NCBI RefSeq assembly: GCF_055900595.2 | Contig: NZ_CM148325.1 | DNA: 64,000 bases | Reading direction: 5' to 3' (one strand) | Part shown: positions 206 through 6,876 of the stretch, one piece after another | Position numbering within the stretch: position 1 is the first letter of the stretch | How the letters are laid out: every line of letters starts with the position of its first letter | Notes under the pieces: generated by a model | The model's database searches: none | The model's input: only the letters and a program-made list of their open reading frames with translations | What the model was told of the DNA's origin: nothing | Translations under genes and position numbers: made by a program

Positions 206-232
206 CCCCCTCATGATGAGGGGGCTTTTTTT
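206..232 (+). terminator. Rho-independent terminator between convergent fimbrial gene and rcnB
   Basis: Perfect palindrome ccccctcatgatgaggggg (206-224) followed by T-run 226-232. Confidence 0.6.
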
Positions 233-569
233 AGCGATGATAAAAAATCTCACCATCGTAGGCTTTAATGATTTTACCGTCGGTGTCGCTGATCAACACA
301 TACGCGCCACCCATATAGGTCCAGTGCGTCCCGGCATCAGGCGCGGGCAGGTTACGTAACTGCCACTGCTTAATGTTGTACTCATCGGTGCGGTACATCT
401 CTGGGACGGTATCGCCTGGTTTGAAATGCTTAAAGTCAGCAATGAAACTGCTTAACTCATACTTAGAAATTCCCGAGGTATTGGTCGAACCCGCGGTGGC
501 TGGTGCGGCCCAGGCGGCACTGGTAACCAGCAAAAGCGCACCCAGCAACATCTTATTTTTAATGGTCAT
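231..569 (-). CDS. rcnB: RcnB, periplasmic protein modulating Ni/Co efflux (112 aa)
   Basis: Internal ATG of ORF 231..749; product MTIKNKMLLGALLLVTSAAWA... has a signal peptide and matches recalled RcnB (YohN); sits immediately downstream of rcnA. Confidence 0.85.
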   Translation of the reverse strand: MTIKNKMLLGALLLVTSAAWAAPATAGSTNTSGISKYELSSFIADFKHFKPGDTVPEMYRTDEYNIKQWQLRNLPAPDAGTHWTYMGGAYVLISDTDGKIIKAYDGEIFYHR

Positions 570-773: not shown

Positions 774-1595
774 CTATCGCATAATGCCCATAAAGCCATG
801 CACGCCCATATACACCCCAACTAAGCCAATCAACAGACTGGAAAAATAGGGGGCACGTTTAGCGAGAGTGTTAAATCCGCTCCAGCGTTTTGCGACCTGC
901 TGAACGCTGATTGCTGCGCCAACGCCTACGGTGACTAGCGTTAACGCCAGGCCAATGCTGAAACTGACGACCAGTGTTGCGCCTAGTGTCAGGGCTTTCA
1001 ACTGAATACAAATCAACAGCACGGTAATTGCTGCCGGGCAGGGGATCAGTCCACCTGTTAACCCAAACAATAAAATTTGCCAGTTGGTCACTTCTCTGCC
1101 ATTGAAGCGTCGTTTGATGTCATTGGCATGGGCTCGTGCATGAGCATCCTGATACTCCCCATGTTCGTGATGGTGATGATGTCCATGGTCGTGGTGATCT
1201 TCGTGATCGTGATGATACTCATGATCATGCCCGTGCATATTCTCCAGCCAGTTACGTTCGCCGCGCCAGGTACGCCAGAACATCCAGAACGCGGTGCCAA
1301 TAATGATCACCGCGGAAATCAACTGGAGCCACGGTTCTGCAGATTGAGCAGTAAAACGTTTGCTGATCACCATCCCGCCAAAGGCAATCAACCAGACCAC
1401 CGCGGTATGCGAAATGGTTGCTGCCAGTCCGAGCATCACCGCCTGTTTAATGGTGCCTTTGATGGCGATGATAAACGCCGCCATCATCGTTTTTGAGTGC
1501 CCTGGTTCCAGGCCATGAAGCGCACCAAGTAAGATGGCGCTGGGAATGAAGAACCAGGCGTTTCCTTGCTGAAGAAGAGTGGTAAATTCAGTCAT
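774..1595 (-). CDS. rcnA: RcnA nickel/cobalt efflux permease with His-rich loop
   Basis: 273-aa membrane protein with loop HGHDHEYHHDHEDHHDHGHHHHHEHG; divergent from rcnR. Confidence 0.93.
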   Translation of the reverse strand: MTEFTTLLQQGNAWFFIPSAILLGALHGLEPGHSKTMMAAFIIAIKGTIKQAVMLGLAATISHTAVVWLIAFGGMVISKRFTAQSAEPWLQLISAVIIIGTAFWMFWRTWRGERNWLENMHGHDHEYHHDHEDHHDHGHHHHHEHGEYQDAHARAHANDIKRRFNGREVTNWQILLFGLTGGLIPCPAAITVLLICIQLKALTLGATLVVSFSIGLALTLVTVGVGAAISVQQVAKRWSGFNTLAKRAPYFSSLLIGLVGVYMGVHGFMGIMR

Positions 1596-1632: not shown

Positions 1633-1667
1633 TACTCCCCCCCAGTACATGATACTACCCCCCAGTA
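1633..1667. promoter_or_regulatory. RcnR operator: two TACT-C6/7-AGTA sites in the rcnR-rcnA divergent promoter region
   Basis: tactcccccccagta at 1633-1647 and tactaccccccagta at 1653-1667; matches the known RcnR recognition pattern TACT-G6-N-AGTA read on the other strand. Confidence 0.8.
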
Positions 1668-1715: not shown

Positions 1716-1988
1716 ATGTCTCATACAATCCGTGATAAACAGAAACTGAAAGCGCGTGCCAGTAAGATTCAGGGCCAGGTCGTGGCGCTCAAGAAAATGC
1801 TCGACGAGCCGCACGAATGCGCAGCTGTTCTACAACAGATTGCTGCTATCCGTGGCGCGGTAAACGGCCTGATGCGCGAAGTGATTAAGGGGCATCTGAC
1901 GGAACACATCGTTCACCAGGGGGATGAGCTAAAACGTGAAGAAGATCTGGATGTCGTTCTGAAGGTGCTGGATTCTTATATCAAATGA
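1716..1988 (+). CDS. rcnR: RcnR, Ni/Co-responsive transcriptional repressor (CsoR/RcnR family, 90 aa)
   Basis: 90-aa [32 protein letters not shown]...; divergent from rcnA. Confidence 0.93.
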
Positions 1989-2058
1989 AAGTGCCTAATA
2001 TGGCCGTAGTTGAGGCAATAAATAGAGGGACAAGTGACGTTAAGCTGAATTAGAGTAA

Positions 2059-2082
2059 ATGGCGTGAGGACACACGCCATTC
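2059..2082. terminator. Hairpin (9-bp perfect stem aatggcgtg/cacgccatt) between rcnR and the island ORFs; possible bidirectional terminator
   Basis: Inverted repeat read directly from sequence; flanking T/A-rich tracts. Confidence 0.4.
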
Positions 2083-2097
2083 GAGGATATAGTTTGA

Positions 2098-2412
2098 TTA
2101 ATTTTCGAAAAATTGCTTCACAGCCCAGCCACCATGACCACCTGGAGTTATGAATGAAACAAAACCTTTGTCATCGACGCTCTGGATTTCTACTGTCATT
2201 GATTCATCTAACACGCGACATTTATTGGATGTAATGAGACTCAGCATAGCCTGTTGGTCATTGTCCTGAATGTAACTGATCATCTCGTAAAAGTCAGTTA
2301 ACTTTTTACAGTTAAATGTACCTTCTTTAAGTGTTGCGCTGTCTCCGTGACTTAGTGCGAATGCATTTGGCATCATTGCCACAAAGATGACGGTAACGAG
2401 TAGTTTTTTCAT
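2098..2412 (-). CDS. Hypothetical small secreted protein (104 aa, N-terminal signal peptide, 2 Cys in mature part)
   Basis: ORF MKKLLVTVIFVAMMPNAFALSHG...; AT-rich context; no recognised family. Confidence 0.6.
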   Translation of the reverse strand: MKKLLVTVIFVAMMPNAFALSHGDSATLKEGTFNCKKLTDFYEMISYIQDNDQQAMLSLITSNKCRVLDESMTVEIQSVDDKGFVSFITPGGHGGWAVKQFFEN

Positions 2413-2421
2413 TGTAGCCTC

Positions 2422-2769
2422 TTATAATTCAGAACATTCACTGATGTTGTAAGTGCCTTTTCTACCATCATCGTTTACGAGATGTAGCACGAAGATGATG
2501 GGATTGGCATCAATGAAAGATACAGAGACGTTCCCGCTTTCGGTGCTATACATCTTTGCAATCTGTTTTTCACCAATATATGAAAGATCCCAACTCACTC
2601 CGTTCAAGCTAAAATGCATCTGTTTGCCGTCAATATCGATGGAGGATTGTGCCGTAACGGTTTTCCCATTGCTGCCAATTTGACCCTGCTGAAGAGCATC
2701 ACATTTATAGGAGCTTGCATAAGTAAATAGAGGTAGTAGCAGAAGTGCAGCAAAAATTTTACTCTTCAT
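2422..2769 (-). CDS. Hypothetical small secreted protein (115 aa, signal peptide, 2 Cys)
   Basis: ORF MKSKIFAALLLLPLFTYASSYKC...; 10 bp upstream of the 104-aa ORF, likely co-transcribed. Confidence 0.6.
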   Translation of the reverse strand: MKSKIFAALLLLPLFTYASSYKCDALQQGQIGSNGKTVTAQSSIDIDGKQMHFSLNGVSWDLSYIGEKQIAKMYSTESGNVSVSFIDANPIIFVLHLVNDDGRKGTYNISECSEL

Positions 2770-3137
2770 ATTTTCCCTTTGCTTGGATTTGAGTTACCTA
2801 TTTTGGGGTAGTCATTATAAAACTATTAATTAGTAAAATGAACAAGTTTTCATTTGTTTAGTAATGGTATTGTTTAGGTTTGAAATTATTACGTACTTTC
2901 ATAGCAATAGGTTGGATAAACAGCAGTTCAGGGAACAAGTTGCACTATCTACATACTTTCCCGCTTTCCATTGTATGTTAGGTAATAGATAGCCTTTGCC
3001 CGTAAGACTAAAAATATTAGAAATGACTCATTCGAATACCTTCTATTCACCTTAATATAGGTTTGATTATTGTAATCGTTTAATGTGTCTTATGGATTTT
3101 TTCCTACTTTTCATTTGCATAATATAGGGGGCACAGC

Positions 3138-3257
3138 ATGCTCTTGAAATTAATTATTAAGATATTTAAATTTTACAGCACACAACTACTTTTCGTTGTC
3201 TTATGTGTTGAACGTACTTCGAGTATAGGTAGGGTTGTATATATATTGCGTGGGTAG
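3138..3257 (+). CDS. Candidate small hydrophobic peptide (39 aa, MLLKLIIKIFKFYSTQLLFVVLCVERTSSIGRVVYILRG)
   Basis: ATG preceded by aggggg about 8 nt upstream; very short, so coding status is uncertain. Confidence 0.2.
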   Translation: MLLKLIIKIFKFYSTQLLFVVLCVERTSSIGRVVYILRG

Positions 3258-3354
3258 AGTTAGAATAGAGGAGGCATCATTTATAGAATATTCAAGAACG
3301 TTAACCTGTGATCAATAAATAAAAATATCAAATGGTGTTCAAACATATTTTTCT

Positions 3355-3686
3355 ATGAAAAATCCAGCCATCTATGATGAATTTTTAGATCCATTTTAAT
3401 TAAAGTATGATTATGAACCAATATTTAGCCAAGAATGGTGGTATAGCGCGTATCCAATGACACCGGAAAACGCATCTATGAAGTCCTTGTTTATCTCTAT
3501 AAGAGGAAATCAACACTAATAAAATATAGTGATGTAACACATCGAGCAGGTTGCTCTGATGCTGGTCTTCAACTGTGGCTTAAACAGCTATCAAACTTCG
3601 GTGTTATTGAGATGAAAGAATTATCTTTCTCAACTTTCAATCTCAAAAAGCTAGAGGAAATAGACCTTAATTATTCCACTCTCTAA
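3355..3686 (+). pseudogene. Possible degraded gene: three consecutive +1-shifted open frames (MKNPAIYDEFLDPF / MIMNQYLAKNGGIARIQ / ...KRIYEVLVYLYKRKSTLIKYSDVTHRAGCSDAGLQLWLKQLSNFGVIEMKELSFSTFNLKKLEEIDLNYSTL)
   Basis: An ~80-codon stop-free frame in ~30% GC DNA lacking an ATG near its 5' end, preceded by two short ATG-initiated frames. Confidence 0.25.
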
Positions 3687-3822
3687 ACTTATCTCTTTAT
3701 TTAAAGTAAAAATGAAAATATTATGGTATCAGCTACGTGGTGGTAACTGGTGTTTATGATCATAGGTACACATATACAGGGAACCCTGGAAAACAAAAGT
3801 AATATATTGATGATTTCGTTTG

Positions 3823-4062
3823 TTATAACTTCGTGGTATCAAGTCCGGCGGCTTTGAGTCGCTCGGTAAGATTTCTCATTTTGCTGAACTCTGTACCAAA
3901 GCTGGCTTTAAGTCCTACACCTTCGCAAAACTCTTTTGCCGTGACGTTTTTAAGATGGTCAGCGTATTTGATCATCTGGAGGTGCATTTCCATCGTTTGG
4001 CTATTTCGTGGTGCGCTGCTAATGGCTTGCTTAATGTTCTCGTAGATCTGGGTTTCTGTCAT
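3823..4062 (-). CDS. Hypothetical protein (79 aa), family not recognised
   Basis: ORF MTETQIYENIKQAISSAPRNSQTMEMHLQMIKYADHLKNVTAKEF...; in AT-rich island. Confidence 0.5.
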   Translation of the reverse strand: MTETQIYENIKQAISSAPRNSQTMEMHLQMIKYADHLKNVTAKEFCEGVGLKASFGTEFSKMRNLTERLKAAGLDTTKL

Positions 4063-4282
4063 TTTTTATCTCACCTATCAAATTTAGATAAATAATATAA
4101 ATTAGATAAATAAGATAATCAATAGTTTTTACCATATGAATAATGGATGTGGATTGTTTCTTTTTCATTTCTGATATGGAGTACAAAATGGGGTCACAAT
4201 GAAGAAGCGATGAATGGAGGCGAGCTTGCATCTGCAAGCCTCTTCCCCTAATCTGGCACAAAATATAGAGATTCAACCAAAC

Positions 4283-4400
4283 GACTCGGGGTGCCCTTCT
4301 GCGTGAAGGCTGAGAAATACCCGTATCACCTGATCTGGATAATGCCAGCGTAGGGAAGTCACGGACCACCAGGTCATTGCTTCTTCACGTTATGGCAGGA
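4283..4400 (+). promoter_or_regulatory. TPP (THI-box) riboswitch in the thiM 5' leader
   Basis: Sequence ggggtgcccttctgcgtgaaggctgagaaatacccgtatcacctgatctggataatgccagcgtagggaa matches the classic thiM thiamine-pyrophosphate aptamer; directly upstream of thiM start. Confidence 0.92.
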
Positions 4401-4407
4401 GCAAACT

Positions 4408-5196
4408 ATGCAAGTCGACCTGCTGAGTTCCGCGCAATCTGCGCACGCGTTACACCTTTTTCACCAACATTCCCCTCTTGTGCATTGCATGACCAATGAT
4501 GTGGTGCAAACCTTTACTGCCAATACCTTGCTGGCGCTCGGTGCATCGCCAGCGATGGTTATCGAAACCGAAGAAGCCAGTCAGTTTGCGGCTATCGCCA
4601 GTGCCTTGCTAATTAACGTCGGCACGCTGACGCAGCCACGCGCACAGGCGATGCGTGCTGCCGTTGAACAGGCAACACACTCTCAAACCCCCTGGACGCT
4701 TGATCCGGTCGCGGTTGGCGCACTCGATTATCGTCGCCGTTTTTGTCATGAACTTTTATCTTTTAAACCGGCAGCGATACGTGGTAATGCTTCGGAAATC
4801 ATGGCATTAGCTGGCGTTGCTAATGGTGGACGGGGAGTGGACACCACTGACGCCGCAGCTAATGCGATACCCGCTGCACAAACACTGGCACGGGAAACTG
4901 GCGCAATCGTCGTGGTCACAGGCGAGGTGGATTATGTTACCGATGGTCGTCGCACCGTTGGCATTCACGGCGGCAATCCGTTAATGACCAAAGTGGTAGG
5001 AACTGGCTGTGCATTATCGGCAGTTGTCGCTGCCTGTTGTGCATTACCTGGCGATATGCTGGAAAATATCGCATCTGCCTGTCACTGGATGAAACAAGCC
5101 GGAGAACGCGCCGTCGCCAGAAGTGAAGGGCCTGGCAGTTTTGTTCCCCATTTTCTTGATGCGCTCTGGCAATTGACGCAGGAGGTGCAGGCGTGA
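4408..5196 (+). CDS. thiM: Hydroxyethylthiazole kinase
   Basis: 262-aa ORF; downstream of TPP riboswitch; overlaps thiD start. Confidence 0.95.
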
Positions 5197-5993: not shown

Positions 5994-6057
5994 GCACCGT
6001 ACTATAGCTGCTTTGGTTATTGTCAGTCTTTGGCGCTGACATTCAGGGATGAAACCA

Positions 6058-6876
6058 ATGCAGCTGAGCATCACCAGTCGAAAAAAATTCACCGCTTTAT
6101 TATGCGCTCTTGGGCTAATTTCCATCGTTGCAATTTATCCGCGTCAGACGGTGAATTTTTTCTACTCGACAGCAATTCAGATTAAAGACTACATCCACTT
6201 CTACGGTTATCGTCCGGTCAAATCTTTTGCTATTCGCATTCCTGCCAGTTACACCATTCATGGTATTGATGTTTCACGCTGGCAGGAGCGAATCGACTGG
6301 CAGCGGGTGGCAAAAATGCGCGATAACGGTATTCGCTTGCAATTTGCCTTTATCAAGGCGACGGAGGGCGAAAAGCTGGTGGACCCCTATTTTTCGCGTA
6401 ACTGGCAACTAAGCCGCGAAAATGGCCTGCTGCGCGGGGCGTATCATTAATTCTCCCCGTCGGTATCCGCTTCAGTTCAGGCGCGATTATTTCTGCAAAC
6501 GGTGGATTTCTCACAAGGCGATTTCCCTGCCGTGCTGGACGTAGAAGAACGGGGAAAATTATCGGCAAAAGAATTACGCAAGCGGGTAAGTCAGTGGCTA
6601 AAAATGGTCGAAAAACGCACGGGAAAAAAGCCGATTATTTACTCAGGAGCCGTTTTTTATCACACGAATCTGGCGGGCTATTTCAATGAATATCCGTGGT
6701 GGGTGGCTCACTACTATCAACGTCGTCCGGACAATGACGGAATGGCCTGGCGCTTCTGGCAGCATTCCGACCGTGGACAGGTAGATGGCATTAATGGTCC
6801 GGTGGATTTTAATGTGTTTAATGGCACGGTGGAGGAGTTGCAGGCATTCGTTGATGGGATTAAAGAAACGCCTTAA
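6058..6876 (+). pseudogene. yegX: yegX (GH25 lysozyme-like) interrupted by an in-frame TAA at 6448-6450
   Basis: ORFs 6049..6450 and 6502..6876 are in the same frame (distance 453 = 151 codons); combined length about 272 aa matches recalled intact YegX. Confidence 0.7.

Follow-up and report, generated by a model that had tools for sequence, protein, structure and literature searches.

The window, i.e. the whole 64,000-nt stretch of DNA that was analysed, carries at positions 774..1595 of the minus strand a gene for a nickel/cobalt efflux protein of 273 aa. This gene is rcnA, and its product belongs to the RcnA/NicO nickel-cobalt efflux family: the NCBIfam model NF007454 matched the protein over its full length (residues 1-273; E=3.7e-167, 554.6 bits at a cut-off of 195), and the Pfam NicO model PF03824 gave E=1.8e-69 (234.7 bits, cut-off 27.7). 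The rcnA annotated in E. coli Z0117EC0005 has the same sequence (100% identity). Export of Ni(II) and Co(II) is predicted for the window RcnA as the function of its family.

Divergent from rcnA lies rcnR (1716..1988, plus strand), encoding a Ni/Co-responsive repressor of 90 aa. Its product matched the equivalog model NF011613 above the cut-off (E=4e-59), and rcnR is annotated beside rcnA in all chromosomal E. coli loci that were fetched with enough flank to show it. A pattern search of the rcnR-rcnA intergenic region revealed two exact matches, at 1653-1667 and 1633-1647 of the minus strand (span 1633..1667), to the RcnR operator consensus TACT-G6-N-AGTA (PMC7055735), with 0 expected by chance. 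Downstream of rcnA, at 231..569 of the minus strand, is rcnB, encoding a periplasmic accessory protein of 112 aa when read from an internal ATG (PF11776, RcnB, E=7.3e-19); the same gene is annotated downstream of rcnA in other genomes fetched. The divergent rcnR, the two putative operators and the downstream rcnB fit the rcn locus.

The RcnA (YohM) of E. coli K-12, with its histidine-rich loop, was reportedly described by Rodrigue et al. in 2005 (J Bacteriol 187:2912). The window resembles K-12 in carrying the same gene within the same rcnR-rcnA-rcnB order, with two RcnR operators and the loop in the same position, and the two proteins are 98% identical overall. In contrast, DNA identity of the two rcnA genes is only 94.8%, with 37 differing nucleotide positions outside the loop, and the window protein is one residue shorter (273 versus 274 aa), the loop reading HGHDHEY-HHDHEDHH... 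in the window and HGHDYEHHHHDHEHHH... in K-12.

Some minor features of the neighbourhood should also be mentioned. Two plus-strand ORFs, 1077..1496 (139 aa) and 1136..1303 (55 aa), run antisense through the histidine-rich part of rcnA. They were not treated as genes: they lie opposite the well-supported rcnA and are most likely by-products of its low complexity, as the reverse complement of CAY/GAY codons is stop-poor. On the other side of rcnR, about 2.4 kb (1989-4407) separate this gene from the next recognisable one, at 4408..5196 of the plus strand, which we take to be thiM. The stretch holds two small minus-strand ORFs (2098..2412 and 2422..2769), both with signal-peptide-like N-termini. 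The rcnR-thiM gap of K-12 is much shorter, and 1989-4407 may be a strain-specific insertion. Further on, two adjacent ORFs of the same strand, 6049..6450 and 6502..6876 (window 6049-6876), look like the halves of one gene, possibly the one for the YegX glycosyl hydrolase, which suggests that this gene is disrupted in the window strain.

The histidine-rich tract of the window allele

The His/Asp/Glu-rich tract of RcnA (HGHDHEYHHDHEDHHDHGHHHHHEHG, codons 121-146) was located in the sequence and its translation at 1158..1235 of the minus strand. Histidine makes up 15 of its 26 residues, against 6 of the remaining 247 residues of the protein, so that the tract carries 15 of the 21 histidines of the window RcnA. 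The other residues are 4 Asp, 3 Glu, 3 Gly and 1 Tyr, and the codons used are solely CAY, GAY, GAR, GGN and TAT. The enrichment in histidine is far beyond chance. The preliminary description had assigned the metal-binding loop of RcnA to a low-complexity tract; it named the gene correctly, the peptide that it quoted is exactly that of codons 121-146, and its span of 1140-1262 includes the whole tract and some sequence to either side.

RcnA has been described as a protein of 6 transmembrane helices with a periplasmic C-tail (PMC11589881). Its loop, quoted for E. coli as 67 aa with 17 His, was predicted to be cytoplasmic (PMC11247825). In our hydropathy scan of the window protein, hydrophobic peaks flank residues 109-176, and the flanks of the loop are rich in Arg and Lys. 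By the positive-inside rule and the published predictions, the loop is most likely cytoplasmic. It would connect the third and fourth hydrophobic segments of this inner-membrane Ni(II)/Co(II) exporter, and both its composition and the literature point to a role in metal binding. A search among solved structures by sequence retrieved no RcnA homologue, only spurious matches to other His-rich stretches.

Although the tract appears repetitive, the sole period that Tandem Repeats Finder (TRF) detected in it was an imperfect one of 18 nt (3.1 copies, 73% matches, score 70), and its longest perfect tandem amounts to 2.2 copies of a hexamer. When the 26 codons of the tract were shuffled 5,000 times, the best periodicity was equalled or exceeded in 26% of the shuffles (P=0.26), and in 2,000 further codon shuffles the longest exact direct repeat, of 8 nt, was equalled in 98% (P=0.98). 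The tract of the window is of low complexity by composition, with no true tandem array at the DNA level; it looks repetitive because nearly all of its codons are CAY, GAY or GAR, for His, Asp or Glu. Several perfect head-to-tail copies of one unit, as in a VNTR of the Salmonella STTR5 type, are absent from it, whereas they are present in other E. coli alleles, i.e. (GACCAC)4-8 and (CACGAG)4-5.

The window allele is also a rare one. Its loop length (the 273-aa form) occurs in about 30 of 5,363 genomes, and the whole gene is found at an identity of at least 99% in only 17 of 5,365. Compared with the closest 274-aa allele, it has one CAC codon fewer and one CAT-to-TAT change. The same loop, identical or with one substitution, is found without gaps in genes 26-32 substitutions away. 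This persistence across diverged genes, together with the outcome of the shuffling, indicates that the interrupted tract of the window allele is stable.

The 3' part of the window gene (774-1154) differs at 21-22 of its 381 nt even from same-loop genes with a closer 5' part. This suggests that the window rcnA is a mosaic, recombinant gene.

Loop length across E. coli

A megablast search with rcnA against 5,426 complete E. coli genomes detected the gene in 5,365 of them. Frequencies of the gene lengths were derived from 118 rows, i.e. two rank-spaced samples of 59 full-length rows each, taken from the 5,365 rcnA-bearing genomes, one ranked against the window allele and the other against the K-12 allele. 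Identity bands of megablast searches with short allele-specific queries were usable for counting the window-type and O157-type alleles, but they cannot tell a 3-nt length change from a substitution in the common class, and the overall frequencies therefore come from the two samples. In the census of the O157-type alleles an E-value limit of 1e-60 restricted the matches to this type, whereas 1e-30 did not.

The K-12 length (825 nt, 274 aa) prevails: it was found in 49 of 59 rows of one sample and 52 of 59 of the other, that is in 101 of 118 (about 86%), three of these 101 rows being genes with frameshifts outside the tract. Such a dominance of one length could reflect stabilising selection or shared ancestry. 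The other gene lengths in the samples were 789, 804, 810, 822, 831, 837, 846, 849, 852 and 858 nt; an allele of 840 nt came from a separate search, outside the two samples, and one of 864 nt is present on a single record filed as a plasmid. Intact genes encode proteins of 262 to 285 aa. The comparison of loop length across E. coli genomes had been proposed in the preliminary description, and it came out as expected there: the length varies, and the invariance that would have spoken against the description is not observed.

Among the in-frame E. coli alleles of which representatives were translated and compared, the differences in length fall within or directly beside the His-rich tract, with two exceptions. 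One is an insertion of GAC AAC GAA (DNE) just 3' of the tract in the O157-type alleles, the other an allele without the final Arg codon. Measured from the Asn that follows NWLE up to the Glu that precedes YQDAH, the segment has 18 to 41 residues among the chromosomal alleles. All tract indels in the alleles compared are multiples of 3, and in the two frameshifted rcnA pseudogenes that were sampled the tract is intact (90 nt), the frameshifts lying elsewhere in the gene. On/off phase variation by frameshift, as at a contingency locus, was rejected because the tract indels are all in frame and the frameshifts of the pseudogenes fall outside the tract.

Outside the loop the aligned E. coli RcnA proteins are nearly invariant, so that within RcnA change is tolerated in the loop alone. 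This is consistent with a flexible metal-binding segment defined by its composition.

Comparison of whole genes in pairs revealed series of alleles that differ by entire units, namely (GACCAC)4-8, (CACGAG)4-5 and CATCATCAC in 1, 2 or 4 copies. The O157-type alleles with 5, 6 and 8 GACCAC units have 0 substitutions elsewhere over ~850 nt, and alleles with 4 and 7 units were likewise found. This class comprises 325 genomes, of which 155 match the six-unit segment and 65 the seven-unit segment at an identity of at least 99%; strains labelled O157:H7 carry 5, 6 or 7 units. The genes of MS1718 and EC0585, with 4 and 5 copies of CACGAG, respectively, differ by 4 substitutions elsewhere. GF43 and HCP5S3 have 1 and 4 copies of CATCATCAC and 7 substitutions elsewhere, and RIVM_C019217 and Z1323HEC0016 have 1 and 2 copies of CATGAG and 11 substitutions elsewhere. 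FORC_082 is separated from K-12 by a 36-nt deletion flanked by an 11-nt direct repeat (ATCACGAACAT), with 1 substitution elsewhere. Otherwise identical alleles that differ in copy number, the mark of a VNTR, thus exist at the E. coli rcnA locus. No copy-number change was seen in the window-type allele, while a related allele took CATCATCAC from 1 to 4 copies.

Several records found in the survey deserve a separate mention. The allele without the final Arg codon was seen in E. coli Iso00270 (L004:301-1137) and strain 08-00022 (L007), where the protein ends in ...GIM and not in ...GIMR. In a 2024 study, a longer or more hydrophilic one-residue periplasmic tail of RcnA impaired insertion of the last helix and lowered cobalt resistance (PMC11589881). 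No rcnA match was obtained for 61 of the 5,426 complete genomes, and in E. coli ZF31 (H60/H300) only the first 111 nt of the gene are left, beside yehA. The longest E. coli allele seen, with (GACCAC)8 and a product of 287 aa, is located on the 438-kb record of the 'plasmid' pNJS001-2 of E. coli NJS001 (L023). Several other plasmid-collection entries with a chromosomal-type rcnA (H301, H302 and H306 among the matches) are 4.8-4.9 Mb long and are probably mislabelled chromosomes.

Origin and significance of the length differences

A close known counterpart of these alleles is STTR5 of Salmonella enterica, a (CACGAC)n repeat inside yohM/rcnA that belongs to the standard 5-locus MLVA scheme and lies in the same loop of the orthologous protein. 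In the Salmonella RcnA that we fetched, protein alignment placed a His-Asp repeat in the corresponding loop, where the conserved flanks on either side are also the same, and TRF found in its gene an array with a 6-nt period (9.0 copies at 93% matches, with an overlapping row of 12.7 copies at 85%). The (GACCAC)n of the O157-type E. coli alleles is the STTR5 hexamer in another register. Arrays of 8-14 perfect units are typical of STTR5, whose mutation rate is high enough for it to serve in outbreak typing; in contrast, the O157-type array reaches just 4-8 units, and the window allele, with at most 2.2 copies, looks stable. A median of 10 units and single-unit changes during in-vitro passage were reported for STTR5 (PMC5183578, PMC1781188), as well as a 54-nt deletion that removed HDHDHDHDHDHDHDHDHD from Salmonella rcnA during in-vivo passage (PMC6760104).

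Another example is MLVA locus 27 of Klebsiella pneumoniae, (CATGGT)n within rcnA, which varies from 0 to 19 repeats and is used for strain typing (PMC3948817). It is likewise a hexanucleotide VNTR in rcnA but, apart from the species, differs in its His-Gly codon unit; the comparison is at the level of the gene. In cable bacteria, the RcnA loop has 100-123 aa with 33-53 His (PMC11247825). The domain architecture with a variable loop is the same there, but the variation is seen between phyla and is not a polymorphism within a species.

Slippage is, with good probability, the best explanation of the stepwise unit series of E. coli, judging from the comparisons of alleles. The O157-type alleles with 5, 6 and 8 units and no other substitution fit replication slippage well. 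We consider it likely that the loop gains and loses codons or blocks of 6, 9, 18 and 36 nt in frame, by replication slippage and by deletion between short direct repeats. Slippage would be frequent only once a unit has reached about 4 or more perfect copies, as in (GACCAC)n of the O157:H7 lineage. The loop would be the sole part of RcnA that is free to change, while the amino-acid sequence of the transmembrane core hardly changes, and changes of loop length are assumed to be close to neutral. This explanation as a whole (a His-rich loop, in-frame slippage, instability that depends on the allele, near-neutrality) seems to us likely.

The notion of a slippage-prone tract, put forward in the preliminary description, holds for the locus, especially for alleles with at least 4 perfect units, but not particularly for the window allele, in which there are at most 2.2 copies, the periodicity is at the level of shuffled codons and the same loop is kept in genes 26-32 substitutions apart.

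Recombination and sequencing artefacts have to be weighed as other sources of the length differences. Homologous recombination that swaps whole diverged rcnA alleles might be suggested by the window-type loop itself, as the 26-32 substitutions that separate the genes sharing it are concentrated in the 3' half (21-22 of 381 nt), giving the impression of a mosaic, and by the O157-type alleles, which differ from the window by ~9% in the 3' portion of rcnA and the downstream flank. It is nevertheless quite unlikely to be the main source of the differences: allele swapping cannot explain series that differ by whole units with 0-1 substitutions elsewhere, repeat-number changes of Salmonella rcnA were reported in passaged clones (PMC5183578, PMC6760104), and recombination distributes existing length variants without generating new ones. 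Some length classes do occur in backgrounds 6-11 substitutions apart, and recombination between lineages may have moved them. That the differences are errors of assembly or sequencing in a low-complexity region is hardly credible. Repeats are indeed error-prone in some assemblies and two sampled genomes have a frameshifted rcnA, but identical alleles turn up in many complete genomes of independent origin (155 and 65 records), the tract indels are all in frame and comprise whole units, and the frameshifts of the two pseudogenes are outside the tract. In-frame slippage, together with deletion between direct repeats, is the reading that we prefer.

The preliminary description had suggested that length variation could modulate metal specificity between strains, an idea to which neither the literature found nor the comparisons made here lend support. 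If loop length altered the capacity of RcnA or its preference for Ni versus Co, slippage would serve as a tuning knob between strains. Such adaptive tuning might be favoured by the fact that strong variation in RcnA, a protein conserved elsewhere, is confined to the loop, by the greatly expanded RcnA loop of the nickel-dependent cable bacteria (PMC11247825), and by Salmonella, in which mid-range STTR5 lengths predominate and extremes drift back, leading the authors to suggest a functional constraint (PMC5183578). It was also proposed, as speculation only, that RcnA might be less stable, or resistance weaker, at extreme loop lengths (PMC5183578, PMC6760104). On the other hand, no measurement tying loop length to resistance or specificity was found in the literature searched, about 86% of the E. 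coli genomes sampled, which come from very varied hosts, share one length, and intact genes are found at both extremes, for proteins of 262 aa and of 285 aa. Among the rows listed, variant lengths occur in isolates from humans, cattle, poultry, pigs and dogs. We thus regard adaptive tuning as unlikely. The range of 262-285 aa with one dominant length is compatible with a weak constraint on length, and would also allow a quantitative effect.

A more specific form of this idea, to which we give slightly less credit still, is that the E. coli loop consists of lineage-specific in-frame micro-VNTRs, i.e. (GACCAC)4-8 in O157:H7, (CACGAG)4-5 and (CATCATCAC)1-4, whose length quantitatively tunes Ni/Co buffering or efflux. 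If this were true, the rare short and long alleles would stem from adaptation to the local exposure to metals, as opposed to neutral drift. Should loop length ever be shown to alter nickel/cobalt handling, the natural alleles would constitute a ready-made test series.

The His-rich loop of RcnA is a recognised feature, and its length instability is already known from Salmonella and Klebsiella rcnA, where it has been exploited for typing, in the case of STTR5 for outbreak typing. Our literature search, whose coverage was incomplete, found no report specific to the loop polymorphism of E. coli rcnA. The polymorphism described here is real but ordinary; after the cases of Salmonella and Klebsiella it comes as no surprise, and its wider significance is small, little beyond book-keeping. 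What is added is a concrete catalogue of the E. coli rcnA loop alleles, along with the observation that instability depends on the allele: arrays of at least 4 perfect hexamers vary within a clone, whereas the interrupted tract of the window does not.

A different type of RcnA loop was encountered on plasmids. The IncHI2A plasmid pMS7884A of Enterobacter hormaechei carries an rcnR-rcnA pair (L022:1501-2616) with an RcnA of 371 aa, and hundreds of similar matches were obtained on large conjugative plasmids of Enterobacter, Klebsiella, Salmonella and Citrobacter. In the 371-aa protein, a non-repetitive insert of ~110 aa (ETRLIDTGHGKVELSIFEEGQLPHWRLRTL...) takes the place of most of the His tract; it is bounded by short HHHH and HDHDHDH remnants, and TRF finds no repeat in it. 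This insert looks like a folded domain within the loop.
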